Of a DNA stretch of 64,000 nt, positions 1 to 61,745 are shown in pieces. The stretch spans positions 108,005-172,004 of the forward strand of contig JAZJZC010000001.1 in the NCBI GenBank assembly GCA_040390045.1. Direction: 5' to 3'. The notes beneath the pieces are model-generated. The model did no database searches and was not told where the DNA came from. It saw nothing but the letters and a program-made list of their open reading frames with translations. Numbering within the stretch: the stretch's first letter is position 1; every line of letters begins with the position of its first letter. The position numbers and the translations under genes are program-made. The stretch is from Patescibacteria group bacterium. GTDB taxonomy: Bacteria; Patescibacteriota; Minisyncoccia; Phycocordibacterales; SIBU01.

Positions 1-7
1 CGGGCTA

Positions 8-1123
8 ATGCAGCTCGGTACCTTGGTGTTCTTGTTCCCCTTAGCTCTGACTATTTTAGGGGTCACAACAGGCTGGAGCAGTTTCACTGCGTGGGGAGGA
101 GTTTGGTGCTTAACCTTTTCACTCCTTTTGATCGTTTGGGCAACCCCCATTGCAATCGCAGCTGACGCCATCCTGAGAATCAGGTGGATGAAGATCAGCT
201 GGTACGCCGAGCTTGGACGAGGGTTGCTTCTTTCGGAGGCACTCACGTTTTCAATTCTCACACTTGTTCCAATCAGAAACGCCTGGGGTGTCTTCCCCTT
301 CTGCTTACTCTGCGTTATAGGAATAATCTTGATGTCGTACCATTGGAAAATGGGGATGTCATGGTTTAAACCGATGATGTGGTACGGCACGATTGGGGCG
401 GTGATTGTCTGTTTGGGGATGTTCTTCTGGCCAGCATTGGTTAGCGGAATAAAGTGGATGCACAGTGACTGGAACACCTTCGAGGTGGTAAAGGGTTACC
501 ACTGGTTGTCGCCGCACGTCAGACCTCAAATCTGGCGGGCCGACGGCAACATGAGGACTCGAGCCATCATCGGCCTAATCCTCATCCTGGCATGGGTCGC
601 TGTTGGTAGCATCGCCCTACTCGTTACCTGGGTCTTCGGCCGAAAAGCTGGAGCTCCAGGGGCAAGTCACGCGGCTTCACCAGCGTCATCACATGGCTCA
701 GGTCATGGAGGTGGTGGAAGTGGTGGCCTGTCGTGGAAGGCGATATTTGGGGTAGTGGTCGTGATCGGGATCATCATTGCGATCTTAGAGCACGCGGACC
801 ATCCCAATAATCCCTATCCCTTCTTCGGAGGACCGGGAAGTGGGCGAATGTTCGCCACAACCAATCCCCCAAGAACAACCACGGGGCATGCGGTTGGAGC
901 GGCAGAAATCGCCGTCCCAATTCCCGACAACTACGACTTCGACGTCGTGGTCAGGGAGGTGGGAAAACCCATCTGGATCCGTCCGGAGGGTTCCACCAAC
1001 AAGTTCCGACTCCAAAGGGGAGAGTACCTCCCCCACTTCAACCTCTATGGGAACCACTTGTTCCTGTCGACGGTTGATCCGAGTCAAACTGTCGCGGTCG
1101 ACGTCAGCGTCTGGCCAAGATAG
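8..1123 (+). CDS. Hypothetical polytopic membrane protein with a Gly/Ser/His-rich linker and a C-terminal soluble domain. The frame is open to the window start, so it may be 5'-partial.
   Basis: Long ORF with many hydrophobic segments and a GGGGSGG linker. It is GC-rich (about 55%) compared with the flanks. No stop lies between position 2 and the ATG at 8. Confidence 0.45.
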   Translation: MQLGTLVFLFPLALTILGVTTGWSSFTAWGGVWCLTFSLLLIVWATPIAIAADAILRIRWMKISWYAELGRGLLLSEALTFSILTLVPIRNAWGVFPFCLLCVIGIILMSYHWKMGMSWFKPMMWYGTIGAVIVCLGMFFWPALVSGIKWMHSDWNTFEVVKGYHWLSPHVRPQIWRADGNMRTRAIIGLILILAWVAVGSIALLVTWVFGRKAGAPGASHAASPASSHGSGHGGGGSGGLSWKAIFGVVVVIGIIIAILEHADHPNNPYPFFGGPGSGRMFATTNPPRTTTGHAVGAAEIAVPIPDNYDFDVVVREVGKPIWIRPEGSTNKFRLQRGEYLPHFNLYGNHLFLSTVDPSQTVAVDVSVWPR

Positions 1124-1133
1124 TAAAATCACA

Positions 1134-1176
1134 AGCGAGGAAGAGATTATATCTCCCCTCGCTTTTTCTTTTTTTT
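1134..1176 (+). terminator. Rho-independent terminator after the 8..1123 ORF.
   Basis: Stem agcgagg/cctcgct with a 16-nt loop, followed by a T-run (ctttttcttttttt). Confidence 0.4.
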
Positions 1177-1260
1177 AATTTTCGAGCTACATGTTTTCAA
1201 TCTTCATTCACCCCACTCGTCCCGCCTCTCTGTGTGTATGTACACCGTTTCTTCTTCCGT

Positions 1261-1301
1261 ATACATTAAGGAGTCACGGCCGTGACTCCTTAATGTAGGT
1301 G
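1261..1301. repeat. Palindromic element R1 (TACATT-N-CACGGCCGTG-N-AATGTAGGTG).
   Basis: Perfect 32-bp palindrome cattaaggagtcacggccgtgactccttaatg. The ends and centre are conserved with R2 and R3. Confidence 0.7.
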
Positions 1302-1367
1302 CTCAAATCAGAGAATAATTTTTTGAAACTTAATTAGAAATAGATTTAGAAGAAACAGAAAAGAAGA

Positions 1368-1943
1368 TTACTTCAAACCAAAATTTTTACGAATTTCTGT
1401 ATCATTCTCTATTGAATCTACGATCATGTACAACACTGCCTTCCCTATCTTAAAATCCGCCTTGAGCATGGTTATAAAATCTTCGCAATCGTAGGGGTAC
1501 ACCCAAACGCTTTGTTGAAGCTTAATGAATCCGATATTTGATAAAGTTTTTCTTAAAAGATCGCGCGTCTTTCTGTTACCTTCTCGTATATCAAAAATCA
1601 CTACGCGCCATTTCTTGTCCCAACGTTTTGGTTTCATGATCCTAAAATTATGCAGTTCAAAGTGACGAAGAATACTTTGACCTTTAGGAGAGAGCTTTAG
1701 AAAGCCGTGAGCGTCATAGAACAACAGACCTTTCTCCACGAGACGCTTCCGTGAGTTATGAATTATTTCAAGCTGTCTTGCACTTTTAATTATCCCTAAC
1801 TTCTTGAGTGACTGGAGAACATTTGGTGCCAAGAGAGCAATCGCGAGTATCCCCGCAGAAGCAACTGTCTGCAAAATAATTTCCTGCAATTGATGTTTAC
1901 GCGCTCGCTTTCTCGATTCAACTTCCATGTTTCCCATATACAT
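1368..1943 (-). CDS. PaaX-family-like transcriptional regulator (N-terminal wHTH, C-terminal PaaX_C-like domain).
   Basis: The C-terminal segment WDKKWRVVIFDIREGNRKTRDLLRKTLSNIGFIKLQQSVWVYPYD matches the PaaX C-terminal pattern (W-G-W-x-VvfdiPE...R..LR..L...GFg.L..svWv.P) as I recall it. The N-terminal region resembles a wHTH. The annotated start overlaps repeat R2, so the true start may be Met3 or Met6. Confidence 0.5.
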   Translation of the reverse strand: MYMGNMEVESRKRARKHQLQEIILQTVASAGILAIALLAPNVLQSLKKLGIIKSARQLEIIHNSRKRLVEKGLLFYDAHGFLKLSPKGQSILRHFELHNFRIMKPKRWDKKWRVVIFDIREGNRKTRDLLRKTLSNIGFIKLQQSVWVYPYDCEDFITMLKADFKIGKAVLYMIVDSIENDTEIRKNFGLK

Positions 1944-1978
1944 TGATTATACACGGCCGTGTGCAATCAATGTAGTGG
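1938..1978. repeat. Palindromic element R2.
   Basis: atacattgattatacacggccgtgtgcaatcaatgtagtgg. It keeps the TACATT and AATGTAG ends and the ACGGCCGT core, and its arms are partly complementary. Confidence 0.65.
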
Positions 1979-2148
1979 AAAACTAGAGACTTTACGACAC
2001 TTCCGCTCACCCATTCCTACAAAAACCCGAATCTCTTACCTTCTGCTCGGTCTGCCGTTAATAAACAGACGCAACCTTGTTTTATTTCTATTACAGATGA
2101 CACTTACCATAGCTCTCAGATACCATGAAATAGTCGGTAATTAGCGAA

Positions 2149-2190
2149 CTACATTGATCACACACGGCCGTTGCTCATCGATGTAGGTGG
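2149..2190. repeat. Palindromic element R3.
   Basis: ctacattgatcacacacggccgttgctcatcgatgtaggtgg. The ends and core match R1 and R2. Confidence 0.6.
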
Positions 2191-2409
2191 AAGTTTTAAA
2201 GGTTTAATGATCATGAAGTCTAAGGATTTGATAATTTAAAATTTTGGAATTTAAAAGTTGAAGGATTTTTAATGTAGAGATTCTTGAAAAGGAAGGTGAA
2301 AAAGGATACGAGAAAGATTTAGTATTTAATCGATTGATACACTTTGATTAAACCAAAAGAAAAACCTCTAAACACTTAGTGTCTAGAGGTTTTTCTGAGA
2401 TAAGACCGA

Positions 2410-3948
2410 TTAGAAGATGCTCAGTAACTTTGATCCGAAGCTAACCATTTTCTGGCTCAAGGTTACAGTGGCGGCAGCCTTTACAACTGGCTTAGCTTGA
2501 GATGCCTTGAGAGCCTTGCCTCCCCCTCCAGTCTGAGGCAAGCCAGGATAAGTCTGAACAGGAGCTTGAACCGTCGGAGTAATTATTGGCGCTGGTACAG
2601 AATAGCTCGGTGAGCTCAACGAAGGAAGTACAATTGTGGGTGATGCTTGATATGTTGGACCAGCGAGCGATCGGCCAACGAACGTTGGACTAGAATCATA
2701 GGTTGGAGAACTTAGGGTATTCCCCGCTGTACCTTCTGTTGCGGCGTAGGTTGGTGAGCTCAAATTTGAACCAGCGTTACTTCCACTTGTATCATAATTT
2801 GGAGAACTTAATGAAGCACCGTTAATACCAGCTGCGGCAACATAACTTGGTGAACTTAAGGTAGCACCGTTATTACTTGCCGTAGTGTATGTGGCAGAGG
2901 ACAAGCTTCCACCATTAGAATTTTCATTTGTAGTATATGTTGCGGAACTCAAAGTGCCGCCGACAGTTGCTGTCGCAATATAGGTTGCGCCAGACAAAGT
3001 GGCGCCGTTGTTGTTTGATGCACTGTAGGTTGGGGAAGAGAGGTTGTTACCGTTAGTACTTGCAGAAGTTGTATAGGTTGCTCCAGAAAGAGTCTGACCA
3101 GAATTGCCTGGGTTGGCAACGTATGTAGCAGAGCTCAAAGTAACCCCGTTAGGGTTATTAGTCGAAGTGTAGGTCGGTGAGGAAAGATTTGTACCATTTA
3201 CGTTTGAATTTGCAACGTAGGTAGCCGAACTCAAGTTGGTACCGTTGACATTGCCTGTCGCGGTATACGTAGGAGAAGCTAAGTTGTTACCAGAGTTACT
3301 TCCTGAAGTTGTGTATGATGGAGAACTAAGGTTGGTACCGGTATTACTTCCTGAAGTACTGTAGGTCGGAGAAGCAAGATTGCTCCCAGAATTATTTCCA
3401 TTAGCAGTATAGGTAGCCGAACTCAAGGTTGTGCCGGTGGTGTTGTTTGTCGAGGTGTAGTTTGGTGAAGATAAATTAGTTCCGGAGTTACTTGAGTTAG
3501 AAACATACGTAGCTGAACTTAGAGTAGGGCCGGCAGGATTATTTGTTGCGTAGTAATTTGGTGAAGATAAGTTTGAACCGCTATTATTGGCCGATGTTGC
3601 ATACACAGGAGAAGTCAAAATATTTCCACCACTAGTTACTGTTGTTACGTACGTAACTGAAGATACAGTAGAACCATTCACGTTATTTGTAGCTGTATAG
3701 TTGGGAGAAGCTAAATTCTTACCAGTATTGTAAGAAGTTGTTGTATACCCTGGTGAAGCAAGACTGCCACCACCAGTATTGGTGTTCGCGACATAATTTG
3801 CAGCGGAACGTGAAGCGCCAGAAATATTGCTATTAGCAACATAACTTGGAGCGCTTAAAGAAGCACAGGCGCAATCAGCCTTACTTACTGCTGGTAAGAA
3901 AGCTATAAAAAGTATTGAAAAACCGATATTTATAAGGTTATTTTTCAT
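2410..3948 (-). CDS. Secreted tandem-repeat surface protein (about 27 repeats of a 16-aa unit G-x-N-L-S-S-P-T-Y-T-x-T-x-N-x-x) with a C-terminal LPQTG-like motif.
   Basis: N-terminal signal peptide MKNNLINIGFSILFIAFLPAVSKA. The 48-bp DNA tandem repeats are visible across about 2650-3800. The C-terminus reads YPGLPQTGGGGK, followed by a weakly hydrophobic basic tail. Confidence 0.6.
   Translation of the reverse strand: MKNNLINIGFSILFIAFLPAVSKADCACASLSAPSYVANSNISGASRSAANYVANTNTGGGSLASPGYTTTSYNTGKNLASPNYTATNNVNGSTVSSVTYVTTVTSGGNILTSPVYATSANNSGSNLSSPNYYATNNPAGPTLSSATYVSNSSNSGTNLSSPNYTSTNNTTGTTLSSATYTANGNNSGSNLASPTYSTSGSNTGTNLSSPSYTTSGSNSGNNLASPTYTATGNVNGTNLSSATYVANSNVNGTNLSSPTYTSTNNPNGVTLSSATYVANPGNSGQTLSGATYTTSASTNGNNLSSPTYSASNNNGATLSGATYIATATVGGTLSSATYTTNENSNGGSLSSATYTTASNNGATLSSPSYVAAAGINGASLSSPNYDTSGSNAGSNLSSPTYAATEGTAGNTLSSPTYDSSPTFVGRSLAGPTYQASPTIVLPSLSSPSYSVPAPIITPTVQAPVQTYPGLPQTGGGGKALKASQAKPVVKAAATVTLSQKMVSFGSKLLSIF
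2650..3800. repeat. In-frame 48-bp tandem repeats inside the surface-protein gene.
   Basis: The protein shows reiterated NLSSPTYT / TLSSATYV units throughout, and the nucleotide repeats can be seen directly. Confidence 0.6.
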
Positions 3949-4128
3949 AATTTTGTTGATTACTTTGGCGTGGAAAGTGAGGTTTTAGGCTCAATTTTTC
4001 ACCCCTGAATCATAACAAACATTATAAATAAAGTCAAGGGGTATACTTGACATATCGAAACCGTGTGATAAACTGCGGTGAGCGTTCGGTTGGGCTAATT
4101 CCCTACTGAACATGACGGTTCAACGCAG

Positions 4129-4929
4129 TTGCACATTACACATATCTCTATGAAAAATCTGATCCTGAAGCTGGCGTTCAGCTTCCTCGCCCTCACCGCA
4201 ACCTTCACCAGCGTCCATGCGGGCTTCCGAGCTCCAGTCTGGAATGACCGATGCTACACCTGTCACGGCGGCACGCCAAGCATCTGGCCCGGAGCGCCGG
4301 GGAGTGGTTGTGGAGGCCTCGCGTACGCGATCGCCTGCGGGTTCGTCAAACCCGTCACAGCGCCTCCGGCATGCTCTAACTGCGCCGTGGTTACGGTCTG
4401 CGATCCCCCACTATCGGCACCGGTCTATTCGCCGGCTGGAGGACCGGATTGCGCCCCATCGTTATCGGCGCCAGTCTATTCACCGGCAGGTGGAGTAATC
4501 TGTTACCCCTCGTTGTCGGCTCCGGTCTACAGCGCACAGACAAATGTCTGCTGTGGCGAGCCACTGTCCTCGCCGACATACACTGCGGATACAAACACCT
4601 GCTGTGGAGGGTCATTATCAGCACCGGTGTACACCGCCAACGTGGTTCCGTGCGCGGTGGTTGTGACTCCCCCGCCACCTCAAGCCAAGCGGCCGGTTTT
4701 GGGCCTAGTATTTGACTACACCGGTCAATACATCCAGGTCAAGATCTCCTTGAAAAACGGAGACCCGAATGCGAAGTATTCGCTCGAGGCGGCGGCGGTC
4801 ACTGGAGGACAATGGGGAGTGGTTCCCGGCCAGAAAATATCGGCCAACGGAAATGGGGTCGGAGAGGTGAAGTTCCTCTACAACTCCACCTTTCCCTTCG
4901 CTCTCTTCAGGGCGAGATTGGATCAGTGA
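4129..4929 (+). CDS. Secreted Cys-rich repeat protein (3x PSLSAPVYSPAGG; CC pairs; one CYTCH motif).
   Basis: Signal peptide MKNLILKLAFSFLALTATFTSVHA. The repeated S-L-S-A-P-V-Y motifs resemble the LSSPTY units of the divergent neighbour gene. GC-rich (about 60%). Confidence 0.5.
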   Translation: MHITHISMKNLILKLAFSFLALTATFTSVHAGFRAPVWNDRCYTCHGGTPSIWPGAPGSGCGGLAYAIACGFVKPVTAPPACSNCAVVTVCDPPLSAPVYSPAGGPDCAPSLSAPVYSPAGGVICYPSLSAPVYSAQTNVCCGEPLSSPTYTADTNTCCGGSLSAPVYTANVVPCAVVVTPPPPQAKRPVLGLVFDYTGQYIQVKISLKNGDPNAKYSLEAAAVTGGQWGVVPGQKISANGNGVGEVKFLYNSTFPFALFRARLDQ

Positions 4930-5052: not shown

Positions 5053-5301
5053 TTACAAAATATTAACCGTGCCCAGAATTATCTCTTTGAGCGCGTAGGC
5101 GGAAATCATAACAACCATTCCCACCACGCCCCAGATCATCTGACGAGTGCCAGTTGATCGAGCTTCGGCGTCATCGGCGGCGCCAACAAAGTTTTGGACC
5201 CCCCAAATAAAGACAAGTGTGGCCAGAGCAAACATCAACAAAATCAGCGGCTTCAGAATGAAGTCGCTGATTTTGTTTACTAATTCATTAACAGCAGTCA
5301 T
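5053..5301 (-). CDS. Pilin-like two-helix hairpin protein (TrbC/VirB2-like), core domain only.
   Basis: TM1-IWGVQNFVGAADDAEARSTGTRQMIWGVVGMVVM-TM2 topology. It shares the [IY]-x-G-x-F-x(3)-AG-[DG]-E-E-x(4)-AK-x(3)-I-W-G motif with the six upstream paralogs. Confidence 0.5.
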   Translation of the reverse strand: MTAVNELVNKISDFILKPLILLMFALATLVFIWGVQNFVGAADDAEARSTGTRQMIWGVVGMVVMISAYALKEIILGTVNIL

Positions 5302-5344
5302 AGATAATATAATTTCTGCGTATAATAAATTATTTCAAACTAGA

Positions 5345-5761
5345 TTAAACGCAAGGTGGAATAGTACAGGTAATTGTTGGCAAACCGTTCTGCGTTGCTG
5401 CTCTGTTTACTGTTGTCTGTCCAGCATTACTTAGTCCAAAAGTATTGATGAGGATTCCAACAAGACCCCAAACAGAGGCCATGAGGAAAATACCGATGAT
5501 TCCCCAAATAATAAAGCCCTTAGCGCTAGCTCGAGCCTCTTCATCTCCAGCTGAACTGATGAATCCGAAAATACCGTAGATAACAACGAAAACAGCAAGA
5601 CCGAACAAGAACGGAATAATGGTGTTAATAACAAGGGTCAGTCTCTGCAAAAAAGTAGTTAAACTAGTTACAGGGGCAGAAACTTGGGGAGCAGCTGCTG
5701 CTTGCGCGAACGCAAGAACCGGAAGAAGAAACGATGCTGAAGCGACGAGAAACTTTTTCAT
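5345..5761 (-). CDS. Pilin-like hairpin protein, paralog 6. It has a signal peptide, a variable region and a conserved hairpin.
   Basis: The C-terminal domain reads VIYGIFGFISSAGDEEARASAKGFIIWGIIGIFLMASVWGL. The C-terminal tail has a Cys pair (TCTIPPC). Confidence 0.5.
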   Translation of the reverse strand: MKKFLVASASFLLPVLAFAQAAAAPQVSAPVTSLTTFLQRLTLVINTIIPFLFGLAVFVVIYGIFGFISSAGDEEARASAKGFIIWGIIGIFLMASVWGLVGILINTFGLSNAGQTTVNRAATQNGLPTITCTIPPCV

Positions 5762-6125
5762 TATATTTTAATTGATTAATTGAAAACTAATAATTTGTAT
5801 TGATACCGAGCGACCTTTATTATTTTTTATGAATGGTTACATTATATATTGTCCATTACAGATAACAAGTGGGGTGTGGATAGTGGCGCTCGGATTGTTC
5901 TTTTCGCTAAAGCGCTTCGTAATCCTCGAAAATCAAGTCGGTGGTCTTTACGTAAAACAAAAAACTCGCTCGAGGACTCGCTCAAACAATTTCATTTTCC
6001 TAACCATCTCGTGATTTTTTACGGCTACTACGCTAACCCGCTCAAAGAACTATCCTCACTTGGATACCGAGATAGGAATCTCGGTAGGAAAACAGGGCTG
6101 GAAATTCAAATAGAGACTAATTCAG

Positions 6126-6998
6126 CTACTTGCAACCAGCTGGTGTAGGAATGGCTAAACAACGAAATATCTGAGTAGTGCCTTGAGGTGTGTTGTCAAA
6201 ATTAAAGGTTTTAACCAAAATATTAATCATGCCCCAAATGGAGAGCATGAGAAATATGAAGATAACACCCCAAATTATAAAATTCCTCGCATCGGCTCGT
6301 TTTTCCTCATTTTGAGCTTCTCGAATATAATTGAAAATACCAAGAATGACAACAAAGACAGCAATACCAATAAGAAATCCAACAATGTTGGGGCCGATGA
6401 TATTGAGCCTTGCGATGAGTTCAACAATGGTTTTTGGCGGTGTGGTCGGCAAAGGAGTATTGTTGGGATATACAGCCGTCACAATACCGTTTGACCTGTC
6501 GAGGTTGAAAGTATTGTAGAGAATGTTTATAAGACCCCAGACTGAGAGCATGCAAAAAATACCAACAATCCCCCACACAATAAAATCTCGGGCTTCTTTA
6601 CGTTTTTCTTCGTCAGCCGCCTGAGAAACATAACCGAAAATGCCGTAAATAATCAAAAATACAGCGAGACCGATCAAAAACGGTATGAAAAGGTTTATGA
6701 TACCGATGAATCTATTGAGGAGAAGGTCGATGGTATTGATAGTGCCAGTCTGCAACGCTCCGGTGACAGCGCTATACCGACTATAGCCAGCTGGGCAATT
6801 CCCGTTAGCACTAGGCTGACTACTAGAGCCATCAGCAGAAACACAAATATCGGCCGCAAAAGCTGGACTGACATTCACAAAAAAACTAAGGAGCAAGGGG
6901 AAAATCAGGAGTCCCAAAAGCACCTGTGACAGTCGTAATTTTAATAATGTAATTTTCATGAGAATAATTCTGTAATCAAAAATTTCATTGAGCACCAA
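6126..6998 (-). CDS. Pilin-like protein with two tandem hairpin domains (internal duplication).
   Basis: Two copies of ...IYGIFGYVSQAADEEKRKEARDFIVWGIVGIF... and ...ILGIFNYIREAQNEEKRADARNFIIWGVIFIF... within one ORF. There are Cys pairs near both termini. Confidence 0.5.
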   Translation of the reverse strand: MVLNEIFDYRIILMKITLLKLRLSQVLLGLLIFPLLLSFFVNVSPAFAADICVSADGSSSQPSANGNCPAGYSRYSAVTGALQTGTINTIDLLLNRFIGIINLFIPFLIGLAVFLIIYGIFGYVSQAADEEKRKEARDFIVWGIVGIFCMLSVWGLINILYNTFNLDRSNGIVTAVYPNNTPLPTTPPKTIVELIARLNIIGPNIVGFLIGIAVFVVILGIFNYIREAQNEEKRADARNFIIWGVIFIFLMLSIWGMINILVKTFNFDNTPQGTTQIFRCLAIPTPAGCK

Positions 6999-7524
6999 CC
7001 AAAGGAATCACAGGGTAACGGGAATGAACGGTCGTATTTGTGTTATCGATCCCTAAGGTGTTGTACAAAATATTTACGAGCCCCCAAACAGAGAGCATGA
7101 GAACGACACCAATAACGCCCCACATGATAAAGTCACGAGCTTGCTTGCGAGCTTCTTCGTCCGCGGCTTGAGAAATGTAAGTGAAAATGCCATAAATAAT
7201 GACGAAGACTCCTAGACCGACGAGGAATGGGATGAGAAGGTTTATGACACCAATAGCTCGGTTTAGAAGACCAGCGATACTGGTGATGGCTCCGCCCCCA
7301 CCACCCGAACAATTTCCGAGCGCTGCATAAGCTTGGTTTAGAGCTGTGCCATTATTACCTTCCCTAGTCATATTGTGAGAACTCAACCATGCATTAACTT
7401 GATCATCAGTACATGAAGCAAAAACTGGACTAACACTTATTGAAAAACTTGAAACTAGAAGCAAACTAAAAACACTTAAAAGAAAGACTCTAGTAAATTT
7501 TGATTTTAATGATAGTTTTTTCAT
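6985..7524 (-). CDS. Pilin-like hairpin protein, paralog 4.
   Basis: Start taken at the ATG giving MKKLSLKS (signal peptide). The track's longer ORF uses a GTG inside an intergenic repeat. The domain reads IIYGIFTYISQAADEEARKQARDFIMWGVIGVVLM. Confidence 0.5.
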   Translation of the reverse strand: MKKLSLKSKFTRVFLLSVFSLLLVSSFSISVSPVFASCTDDQVNAWLSSHNMTREGNNGTALNQAYAALGNCSGGGGGAITSIAGLLNRAIGVINLLIPFLVGLGVFVIIYGIFTYISQAADEEARKQARDFIMWGVIGVVLMLSVWGLVNILYNTLGIDNTNTTVHSRYPVIPLVGAQ

Positions 7525-7540
7525 GGGGTAATTATATAAT

Positions 7541-7636
7541 GAATTCATGGAACATGGAACACAAATCACAGAACACTGGGGGATAAAATTAATCTCTTTT
7601 TTATGATCCGTGTTCCATGTTTTGTGTTCTGTGACC
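7541..7636. repeat. Intergenic heptad-repeat inverted-arm element (CAYGGAA type).
   Basis: Left arm CATGGAA CATGGAA CACAAAT CACAGAA CAC at 7546-7576. Core tgggggataaaattaatctcttttttatg. Right arm cgtgttccatgttttgtgttctgtga at 7609-7634, inverted. Confidence 0.65.
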
Positions 7637-7989
7637 TAAAAGGTGTCCACTCCCAAATAGGTATTGGCCAAAAGTCTGGCTAGACCCCAGAAAGAGAAAA
7701 TAATAAACATCCCCAGAAGACCGTAAATAATGAGTTGTTTGGCTTTACCCAAACGTTCTTCGTCTCCACCTGCCCCGCTGTATTTTAAAATTCCGGTGAG
7801 CAATCCGAAAAAACCGAGACCGGCAACAAACATTGTAACGTCGCCTAAGATGTTTATAAAATTTAGAACAAATTCAGAAAAATTTCTAGACGGGGTCGCT
7901 GGCGTCGCGGCAACTGCGAGAAAAGGAAAGGTAGAAGACGAAATTATTATAGCCAAAGTTTTCGTATGTTTTCGTATTTTCGTAATCAT
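7636..7989 (-). CDS. Pilin-like hairpin protein, paralog 3.
   Basis: LKYSGAGGDEERLGKAKQLIIYGLLGMFIIFSFWGL. The N-terminal codons MITKIRKHTKT are encoded by TACGAAAAT repeats. Confidence 0.45.
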   Translation of the reverse strand: MITKIRKHTKTLAIIISSSTFPFLAVAATPATPSRNFSEFVLNFINILGDVTMFVAGLGFFGLLTGILKYSGAGGDEERLGKAKQLIIYGLLGMFIIFSFWGLARLLANTYLGVDTF

Positions 7990-8009
7990 TTAGTATGTTC
8001 GTATTACCG
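7958..8009. repeat. TACGAAAAT-family short dispersed repeat cluster.
   Basis: gttttcgtatgttttcgtattttcgtaatcatttagtatgttcgtatta. Confidence 0.55.
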
Positions 8010-8459
8010 TGTTGGACACGTGAGTCCTGCAGTACCGAGTTGTTGGATGGTGCCACAAATAATAGTGGAAATAACTTTAGCACCGAGTAGAACAGCGACA
8101 CCGATCACGGTCCACAAAAGTGCATTCTTGGCTTTACTTAATTTTTCTTCACTGCCTCCAGCCATAACCATCAGAAATCCAGCATAAATGAGAAAGAAAA
8201 TAGAGAGTAGAGCGGCAATCGGAAAAAGGGTATCGAGAAGTAATTTGATGAAAGCCTCGATAGAGTTAACGCTTCCAAGAGGATTGGTTATAATCGGGGC
8301 AATTTGTGATCCAGATCCACCTCCCGTGATCTGCGAGCCCTGAGCCAGAGCCGTAGTGGCTGAAAGCATTGCATATGTAACTCCTGTCAAAAACGCTAGA
8401 AAAATTTTAAATTTTTTAAATATCATTGAATATATTTGATTACTATTTTGGAGCTTCAT
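8004..8459 (-). CDS. Pilin-like hairpin protein, paralog 2.
   Basis: FFLIYAGFLMVMAGGSEEKLSKAKNALLWTVIGVAVLLGA. C-terminal Cys pair ICGTIQQLGTAGLTC. Confidence 0.5.
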   Translation of the reverse strand: MKLQNSNQIYSMIFKKFKIFLAFLTGVTYAMLSATTALAQGSQITGGGSGSQIAPIITNPLGSVNSIEAFIKLLLDTLFPIAALLSIFFLIYAGFLMVMAGGSEEKLSKAKNALLWTVIGVAVLLGAKVISTIICGTIQQLGTAGLTCPTR

Positions 8460-8485
8460 TAAAATGAATACGATTTGGAAAAATT

Positions 8486-8953
8486 TTATATTGGTTTTAA
8501 TGTACTCCTGCTTATAAACCCGGCATCAATTAACCCGGCGTCGATTGCATGGACAATAAGCCAGGCCGAAAGCATGATCAAAAACCCGACAAGCACTTTT
8601 CCAAAAATTTCTTTGGCATGCTCTATTTTACCCATTTCTCCTCCCGCTGTCATCATCAAAAATCCTGCCCAAGCAAAGGCGAGAGCAGAAACCGCTGCTC
8701 CAAGGACGATGAGGTAGTTAGCTATTTTATTGATGAGCGTAATAATGTGTTGAAATCCACAGGGATTCGAAACCGTACCTCCTACATATTTAACTCCACT
8801 TCCTGTTCCAAGGGTAGCCCCGTCAGGATAGACTTCTGTGCCACAGGGAATAAAATTTTGTACCGCTTGTCCAAAAACCAAAAAGGGTGCTGTAATCAAA
8901 AATATCGCCAAGAAAAACGAGAAGATGGCATTTTGATTTACAATTTTTGTCAT
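8486..8953 (-). CDS. Pilin-like hairpin protein, paralog 1.
   Basis: AFAWAGFLMMTAGGEMGKIEHAKEIFGKVLVGFLIMLSAW. The N-terminal variable region carries a Cys pair. Confidence 0.5.
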   Translation of the reverse strand: MTKIVNQNAIFSFFLAIFLITAPFLVFGQAVQNFIPCGTEVYPDGATLGTGSGVKYVGGTVSNPCGFQHIITLINKIANYLIVLGAAVSALAFAWAGFLMMTAGGEMGKIEHAKEIFGKVLVGFLIMLSAWLIVHAIDAGLIDAGFISRSTLKPI

Positions 8954-61374: not shown

Positions 61375-61745
61375 TTTTTCCTCTCTTTCGTATCTGGGAT
61401 TTGTTATTGTGTGTTCAATTTACAGCCTTATTGAGCCCCACCAAGGGCAGTACTGTCCTTAAAACAGTCGTTTTCAAAGGTCTATATATGAAACTAATTC
61501 CACCCTATCACAAATTTTGAGGCTTTGTCCAGAATCAGTACCCCGAGTTCAACAACCGATTTGCAACGCATGACTTAATGACAAAGGAACAGATTATCAA
61601 CCGCATCAAAAACGACGGAGTATCGATCATTCAAGCTGCGCAAGACTACAGGGTATCGGAAAATTCGCAATCGCATATCCATATGCGAAAAACAAAAAAA
61701 CATCCCGATCGGGATGTTTTTTTGTTTAAACTATTTCTGCGAAAT

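Follow-up and report, generated by a model that had tools for sequence, protein, structure and literature searches.

Regulatory or mobile sites on both sides of a single gene are known from several bacterial systems. LacI, with its operators O1, O2 and O3, and GalR, with OE and OI, combine a main operator on the promoter with auxiliary operators hundreds of base pairs up- and downstream, the sites being brought together by DNA looping; in the REP/RAYT systems (REPtrons) a single gene is bracketed by its own cognate palindromes, and paralogues pair with different palindrome types. The repressor PaaX of Escherichia coli binds an operator of two widely spaced inverted half-sites, TGATTC-N27-GAATCA, and autorepresses Px by hindering or excluding RNA polymerase (PMC9493321). 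The present work concerns three related palindromes, designated R1, R2 and R3, that flank the gene of a short PaaX-like regulator (mini-PaaX) in a 64-kb stretch, hereafter the window, of contig JAZJZC010000001.1 from a Patescibacteria genome of 41% G+C. Patescibacteria, the candidate phyla radiation (CPR), have tiny genomes in which few regulators can be recognised and, to my knowledge, almost nothing is known about their control of transcription. The three palindromes are probably cognate sites of the protein encoded between them, R2 serving as autorepression operator and R1 and R3 as auxiliary sites for the same dimer. The elements, read within positions 1-4000 of the window, are as follows.

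1262-1297, no strand assigned: R1, TACATTAAGGAGTCACGGCCGTGACTCCTTAATGTA, a perfect 36-bp palindrome (18/18 pairs), proposed auxiliary 3' operator.
1368-1937, minus strand: mini-PaaX gene, 189 aa, encoding a winged helix (about residues 1-100) followed by a Cas2-like PaaX_M domain (about residues 105-189).
1939-1974, minus strand: R2, TACATTGATTATACACGGCCGTGTGCAATCAATGTA, 16/18 pairs, lying on the putative core promoter of the mini-PaaX gene and proposed as its autorepression operator.
1946-1951, minus strand: TATAAT, read from the sequence in the arm of R2 nearer the start codon (positions 24-29 of the palindrome), putative -10 hexamer.
1975-2149, no strand assigned: spacer between R2 and R3, 175 bp, non-coding.
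2150-2185, minus strand: R3, TACATTGATCACACACGGCCGTTGCTCATCGATGTA, degenerate (14/18 pairs), proposed as a weak auxiliary operator on the upstream side or as a duplicate of R2 that has decayed.

All three copies follow the 36-bp pattern TACATT-N7-CACGGCCGTG-N7-AATGTA. With up to three mismatches allowed, the full pattern has exactly three matches in the 64 kb, namely R1, R2 and R3, as against 0.00-0.01 expected and none in 100 shuffles, and the half pattern has five matches where 0.01 are expected. The initial annotation, made from the letters alone, had already placed the elements at these positions, and most of its description is borne out. R1 is indeed a perfect palindrome, albeit of 36 bp and not of the 32 bp first given, and lies 3' of the regulator gene as described, 71 bp past the stop codon. 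R2 and R3 share its termini and centre, their arms being only partly complementary (R3 also has two mismatches to the ends-plus-centre pattern). R2 sits at the start codon region, ending 2 nt from the family-consensus ATG (1937-1935) and containing a second in-frame ATG at 1943, upstream of the consensus start; R3, put about 170 bp further on, is separated from R2 by 175 bp, the interval between R1 and R2 being 641 bp and containing the gene. On the plus strand GGTG, GGTGG and GTGG directly follow the three copies, which therefore share one orientation; across the family loci this flank is not conserved. R3, oriented like R2, keeps ends and centre and reads TGTGAT at the place of R2's TATAAT. 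Its start-proximal arm equals that of R2 at 18/21 positions, which suggests duplication; R3 would seem to be a copy of the promoter-operator R2 that has since decayed. As had been noted, nothing credible is coded in the spacer, whose sole open reading frame (ORF) is one of 61 aa with a GTG start and no Pfam match; a tblastn comparison with the regulator family detected no similarity and no remnant of a second regulator gene, and nothing similar to the spacer was found in the other fetched DNA and loci.

The arrangement is not peculiar to the window, and the protein is one of a large family in Patescibacteria. Homologues of about 189 aa number more than 1,600 (370 clusters at 50% identity, E <= 1e-30), one of them, from a Patescibacteria metagenome-assembled genome, being 100% identical to the window protein; a literature search found no description of the family or of its palindromes. 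Loci were taken from species-representative genomes (80) and from metagenome assemblies (several more), and a set of 83 was scanned in the flanks of the family gene for 36-bp palindromes with at least 13/18 pairs, the background being random 150-nt windows in the same loci. Such a palindrome lies upstream of the gene in 68/83 loci (82%) and downstream of it in 62/83 (75%), as compared with 33 of the 947 random windows; cognate pairs surround the family gene in 60 loci. In 571 kb there are 81 palindromes of the same style, and 74 of these are within 150 bp of a family gene. The initial annotation had envisaged that these might be the only three copies and that orthologous loci might lack them; three copies are indeed all that the 64 kb contain, but the figures just given show that the loci of relatives mostly have them.

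Within a locus, upstream and downstream copies agree at 0.84-0.99 of comparisons at half-site positions 1-8 and at 0.91-0.98 at positions 15-17, as against about 0.6 at arm positions 9-13. Between-locus controls at positions 1-8 and 15-17 give 0.34-0.60, except at position 16, a C that is invariant family-wide. This profile matches the window, with conserved ends and centre and variable arms. Across loci the centre may be CTATAG, CGGCCG, CGATCG, CGGTCG/CGACCG or CTGTGG, and the end TACAY, TACGT, TGTAC or GGGAA; paralogues in one assembly differ at 2 or more of the 13 determinant positions in 15/16 pairs. Both relative orientations of the two copies occur among loci with the asymmetric centre CGGTCG/CGACCG, and L069 and L054, among others, have two copies in direct orientation.

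Extra cognate copies are present in L011, L031, L033, L037 and L063. In L011 (1004-1260 and 2053-2240) both the solo palindrome and the downstream one lead into the same GGTGGTTTTTTGTTTTGGTTCACAAAATAC... stretch and into tRNA or tRNA-like DNA, apparently a local duplication of a 'palindrome + tRNA region' around the regulator gene. A metagenome scan for TACATT-N7-CACGGCCGTG, in which 80 of 87 stretches were checked (L086-L165), returned nearly only chance half-matches; the true palindromes among the 80 stretches are those of L111/L153, which are one locus and abut a family gene, and the solo site of L159.

The position of R2 points to its function. On the gene strand it reads TACATT GATTGCA CACGGCCGTG TATAAT CAATGTA TATGGG, and its arms are asymmetric at 3 nt (GCA versus TAT) because the hexamer TATAAT is formed there. 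In 51/83 loci the upstream palindrome lies 0-2 nt from the ATG, its last A usually being the A of the start codon. When palindrome positions 24-29 were scored on the gene strand, a TATAAT match of at least 4/6 was obtained for 41/51 upstream copies versus 18/62 downstream copies, and it is precisely at the partner positions 9-13 that the upstream copies have lost pairing. With TATAAT at 24-29 and the start codon 2 nt past R2, the mRNA would therefore be leaderless or nearly so, and I infer that the 36 bp extend from about -35 to +1 of a promoter of this kind, with 6-8 nt between hexamer and ATG. If so, the fixed TATAAT-6 nt-ATG arrangement offers a promoter model for CPR bacteria that predicts leaderless transcription. 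In a subset of loci a recurrent GTCAAT(A/C) directly precedes the upstream palindrome (e.g. L001:3945-3956, L002:3954-3964); it is too far from TATAAT for a -35 element and does not occur at the window locus.

The protein belongs with the regulators that its first description named, since its PaaX-like assignment is confirmed by PF20803 PaaX_M (74.4 bits against a cutoff of 24, E = 7.6e-21). The Cas2 model TIGR01573 scores just above its threshold (25.4 bits versus 24.5), only its first ~40 positions being aligned, and PF09827 just below (21.8 versus 23.8); the PaaX model TIGR02277 reaches 35.8 bits versus a cutoff of 264.55, residues 61-168 aligning with model positions 37-144 of 279. A protein just past the Cas2 cutoff and far under the PaaX equivalog cutoff is therefore best described as a truncated 'mini-PaaX'. 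It ends at residue 189 and has no C-terminal helical effector domain, the phenylacetyl-CoA-responsive part of PaaX. Two AlphaFold runs on the 189 residues gave weak models, with a predicted local distance difference test (pLDDT) score of 63-66, in which three helices and a beta wing (helix-helix-helix-strand-strand at residues 38-82) are followed by a linker helix and by a beta-alpha-beta-beta-alpha-beta order; because of these scores, structural claims are confined to the order of secondary structure and to fold-level matches. The top Foldseek matches are E. coli PaaX (8a39) and Rv0674 (3kfw), then many Cas2 and VapD structures.

Protein and palindrome change together. Among 81 distinct proteins, aligned and each matched to its own half-site consensus, the strongest associations tie residues 57, 58 and 61 of the recognition helix to the outer palindrome positions 3-5: E57 goes with C3, R57 with G3, Y58 or F58 with TACGT (18/18 loci) and R61 with C5. 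Residues 122, 139 and 142 of the Cas2-like domain covary with positions 15-18, K122 being paired with G15 and R122 mostly with A15; D142 is found in 34/34 loci with the half-site T,A at positions 17-18 (CTATAG-type centre), and N, K, H or Q at 142 accompany CGRYCG centres. In a phylogeny-limited test of 257 protein pairs with at least 62% identity, which ranked 155 variable positions, residues 142 (p = 7e-22), 61 (9e-29), 58 (2e-12) and 57 (2e-14) each came first of 155 for their own DNA position, and residue 122 came third, after two Cas2-domain positions that vary in few loci only. Even among members of the Y58/TACGTT subfamily, changes in the centre go along with changes at residues 122 and 142; it therefore seems that each domain reads its own part of the site independently of the other, in a modular code. 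The window protein, with E57, I58, N61, R122 and Q142, agrees with its own TACAT...CACGGCCGTG site; the sole other Q142 protein, that of L065, also has the centre CACGGCCG. Such covariation suggests base recognition by the Cas2-fold domain, which may be a new function of this fold beside dimerisation and nuclease activity, and it furnishes a candidate recognition code, with residues 57/58/61 for the operator ends and 122/139/142 for the operator centre.

These observations can be joined into one mechanism. A homodimer would cover the whole 36 bp, the recognition helices of its two winged helices reading the outer 5-8 bp (TACATT / AATGTA) and its Cas2-like dimer sitting on the central CACGGCCGTG and reading it. 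As R2 would be the gene's own core promoter, binding there would exclude RNA polymerase, and the gene would be under negative autoregulation of the kind published for PaaX and Px in E. coli. R1 and R3 would be auxiliary sites of the same dimer, most likely strengthening repression by cooperative binding or looping; R1, between convergent genes, may in addition be a protein roadblock that insulates the gene. The initial annotation had advanced this idea in outline, i.e. operator sites of the adjacent PaaX-like repressor and autoregulation, and comparative sequence data now support it well through the 83-locus layout, the placement on -10 hexamer and ATG, the covariation and the geometry of the PaaX operator.

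Several points weigh against it, however. The TACATT in the place of a -35 element is a poor sigma-70 match, and a scan for consensus sigma-70 promoters did not call R2, because its -35 is non-canonical. It is unusual for a repressor of any kind to have a conserved operator 3' of its own gene, the evidence for a regulon amounts to a few extra cognate sites, the covariation statistics are corrected for phylogeny only in part and the structure model is of low confidence. The family has an invariant Asp116 where Cas2 has its catalytic position, in an FDI motif that corresponds to the YDI of Cas2, so that the Cas2-like domain may, judging from this residue, have nuclease activity. Finally, the variable arms of the downstream copies are more symmetric than a reading of ends plus centre requires: 12/62 of these copies are perfect palindromes and, where both arms differ from the upstream copy, the double changes are complementary in 53/82 cases (53 compensated versus 29 uncompensated). 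This symmetry may come from symmetric reading of the arms by a dimer, or from templated correction of quasi-palindromes.

The invariant aspartate and the bracketing layout also belong to another explanation, which has a slim chance of being right: the palindromes would be recombination or cleavage sites to which the winged helix targets a Cas2-like nuclease, the gene would be excised, inverted or copied as a cassette, and solo sites would be scars. Cognate sites do lie on both sides of the gene in most loci, as REPs do around RAYT genes, yet what they bracket is everywhere the same gene family and not a variety of genes, and the placement on the -10 hexamer lets the upstream site be understood as part of an ordinary promoter. 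In L016 the downstream site (3603-3638) is the exact reverse complement, 36/36, of the imperfect upstream site (2966-3001), as in terminal inverted repeats, and the whole unit is mirror-symmetric; however, no inverted-orientation variants were seen among the contigs, nor any target-site duplication, and no recombinase domain was found among the scanned neighbours, which represent part of the window. No conserved partner gene accompanies the regulator, no neighbour family being common to more than 6/83 loci, and units stand in arbitrary housekeeping contexts, even between rplB and rpsS in L002; on the other hand, identical proteins occupy one context each across 22 and 18 contigs, neighbours are shared in 7/8 pairs of orthologues with at least 85% identity, and paralogues are old (50-60% identity), with no near-identical copies inside a genome. 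The family is also essentially absent from 2.9 million viral contigs, with one partial match that covers the Cas2-like domain only. The recombination-site-bounded cassettes, one with a gene and one empty, of which the initial annotation was reminded are not supported, given the single contexts, the synteny, the lack of a recombinase among the scanned neighbours and of attC-like ends; nor does the same element flank different genes in relatives, as cassette behaviour would imply, the bracketed gene being always of the mini-PaaX family.

The L002 unit is worth describing for itself: a 2.2-kb insert (2501-4685) interrupts the operon of ribosomal proteins, with rplB on one side and rpsS on the other, and it contains the antisense regulator gene, two ORFan genes, a 56-bp perfect palindrome and, right after rplB, a hairpin-plus-T terminator.

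Solo sites are best seen in the spacer between map and the next gene, which holds four palindromes in L159, one in L188 and none in L186, with Map proteins 85-100% identical. It follows that palindrome units have been gained and lost over evolutionary time, a point that agrees with scars, the gain or loss of units of palindrome plus spacer apparently having gone one unit at a time. The four L159 palindromes (797-1141; cf. L188:4783-4818 and L186:4768-4796) are all different, 36-40 bp long, with centres GCTATAGC, ACGATCGT, ACGATCGT and ACGGCCGT; this 4.5-kb contig has no family gene on it, and in relatives the spacer is followed by a large ORF and then a TraG-like gene. The site at L159 1106-1141 is a perfect window-type palindrome, cognate to the regulator of L153 from the same metagenome, and is at least as well explained by regulation in trans. 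More far-reaching is the notion that gene and two palindromes form an autonomous Cas2-based unit for site-specific DNA processing outside CRISPR, with the winged helix delivering a still-active nuclease to the palindrome centres and cleavage or strand exchange taking place there. I consider it very improbable; if true, R3 and the four-palindrome array of L159 would be footprints of excision, inversion or copying, and the unit would bear on the origin of the association between Cas2 and repeats.

Operators bound by the mini-PaaX dimer have also to be set against hairpins formed by RNA or single strands, in which case R1 would end transcription or stabilise the 3' end, R2 would fold at the 5' end and hide the start codon, and no specific protein would be involved. 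Two further features of the window are needed here.

1125-1172, no strand assigned: hairpin with T-run, GCGAGG...CCTCGC TTTTTCTTTTTTTT, outside the palindrome family.
2358-2396, no strand assigned: canonical bidirectional intrinsic terminator of a 512-aa repeat-protein gene, where the non-coding region around R3 ends on its far side.

The hairpin at 1125-1172 probably terminates the convergent 371-aa gene and perhaps the regulator transcript too. R1 and R2 would indeed fold stably as RNA (-25.2 kcal/mol, z = -7.1, and -18.8 kcal/mol, z = -4.7), but R3 has kept the determinants without forming a stable hairpin (z = 0.02). Perfect pairing in some downstream copies and the excess of compensated double changes agree with selection for a hairpin, as does the fact that 34/54 of these copies lie between convergent genes, where terminators sit; nevertheless only 7/60 are followed by TTTT or a T-run, R1 has no T-run after it, and canonical hairpin-plus-T terminators are found elsewhere in the window (2358-2396, 61691-61726). 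A scan for intrinsic terminators called none at R1, R2 or R3, and the one Rfam match in the window at gathering thresholds was a tRNA, the palindromes having none. Mismatches in downstream copies are G.U and A.C in about equal number (24 versus 21), with no strand bias; this, together with an R3 that has the determinants and no hairpin, points to recognition of duplex DNA. Upstream copies, moreover, give up pairing to form TATAAT, and hairpins would leave unexplained both the ends and centre that two copies of a locus share and their covariation with protein residues. Simple terminator hairpins, which the initial annotation had weighed as an alternative, are therefore highly unlikely to account for the elements. 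A downstream palindrome acting as promoter of a co-directional neighbour was considered as well and rejected on the same count of convergent neighbours.

That the sites are operators whose main job is to control other genes in trans, the copies at their own gene being incidental, e.g. through local duplication, has a very small probability, for although the perfect cognate site of L159 lies far from family genes and upstream of the large gene next to the TraG-like gene, a third cognate site in L031 lies 59 bp upstream of a patatin-like gene and the likeness of the R2 and R3 arms suggests duplication, nearly all sites of the census are at the gene itself and the downstream copy has been kept in three quarters of 83 diverged loci with determinants that match the upstream copy, which indicates selection and not accident.

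The genes around the regulator are of mixed kinds. Within 10 kb there are ORFans, T4SS_pilin paralogues, a solute-binding protein, a methyltransferase and a glycosyltransferase, and no paa catabolic genes. Six paralogous T4SS_pilin (PF18895) genes stand in a row on the minus strand (5053-8953), 3-7 kb from the regulator, and such genes are found beside the family gene in L004 and a few other loci too. The 371-aa membrane-like ORF and a 266-aa ORF (8-1123 and 4129-4929) have 54-55% G+C in this 41% G+C genome; a homologue search with the former, meant to locate orthologous loci with or without the module, found none among 5.8 billion proteins, and the latter looks secreted, with PSLSAPVYS-type repeats and no Pfam match. 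The 512-aa product of 2410-3948 (minus strand), with a signal peptide and no Pfam match, consists almost wholly of degenerate ~16-aa units ending in LSSPTY or LSSATY, and a 48-bp period was detected at 3272-3399 by Tandem Repeats Finder (TRF). Elsewhere in the family, L001:1277-2624 has an RVT_1 reverse transcriptase gene beside bAvd, a hallmark of diversity-generating retroelements; the family gene is 1.4 kb away.

For the study of these bacteria the practical value lies in a large family of regulators in which, for almost every member, the predicted site can be read from the flanks of its own gene.

Compared with the systems mentioned at the outset, and with two others that the layout recalls, the mini-PaaX loci share some traits with each. 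Like REP/RAYT they have a gene flanked by cognate palindromes; unlike it, the protein is not an HUH/Y1 transposase, Pfam recognising PaaX_M and Cas2 only, and the palindromes are not dispersed, three in 64 kb being all at the gene, as are 74/81 in 571 kb. With CRISPR Cas2 they have in common a C-terminal half of ferredoxin-like fold with an FDI motif (cf. YDI) and its invariant Asp, and palindromic repeats of 36 bp, a length typical of CRISPR repeats. There is however no repeat-spacer array (TRF reports none, and the intervals are 641 and 175 bp), the repeats differ in their arms, the domain is fused to a winged helix, and neither cas1 nor any other conserved neighbour occurs in the 83 loci. 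Integron attC sites are likewise imperfect palindromes with conserved ends and variable arms, bounding a gene and, here, a short non-coding segment, yet the ends are TACATT/AATGTA and not the RYYYAAC/GTTRRRY core sites, R1 pairs 18/18 without extrahelical bases, no integrase was found in the part of the window scanned, and the same gene family is bracketed in 60 loci. LacI and GalR resemble what is proposed for mini-PaaX in having a promoter operator and auxiliary sites, looping being supposed by analogy only; in mini-PaaX, though, the downstream site lies past the whole repressor coding region and is usually the more perfect palindrome.

The nearest relative remains PaaX. Like it, the window protein has an N-terminal winged helix and then a Cas2-like PaaX_M domain, and its top fold matches are 8a39 and 3kfw; its predicted operator is also made of two inverted 6-bp half-sites far apart, TACATT-N24-AATGTA, which at R2 overlaps TATAAT and abuts the ATG. 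It is set apart from canonical PaaX in having no effector domain, the protein being only 189 aa long, and no paa genes, nor any conserved neighbour, beside it. Other differences are that the operator centre is conserved and covaries with Cas2-like residues, that throughout the family another cognate site is conserved 3' of the gene, that a genome may have several paralogues with distinct sites, and that mini-PaaX keeps the Cas2-type Asp of the FDI motif, which in HMMER alignments E. coli PaaX and Rv0674 do not have. To sum up, mini-PaaX would in function be of a known kind, a PaaX-type autorepressor with widely spaced inverted half-sites; what is new is the truncated architecture, the apparent reading of bases by a Cas2-fold domain, the second, 3' operator throughout the family, and distinct pairs of paralogue and site in very small genomes.

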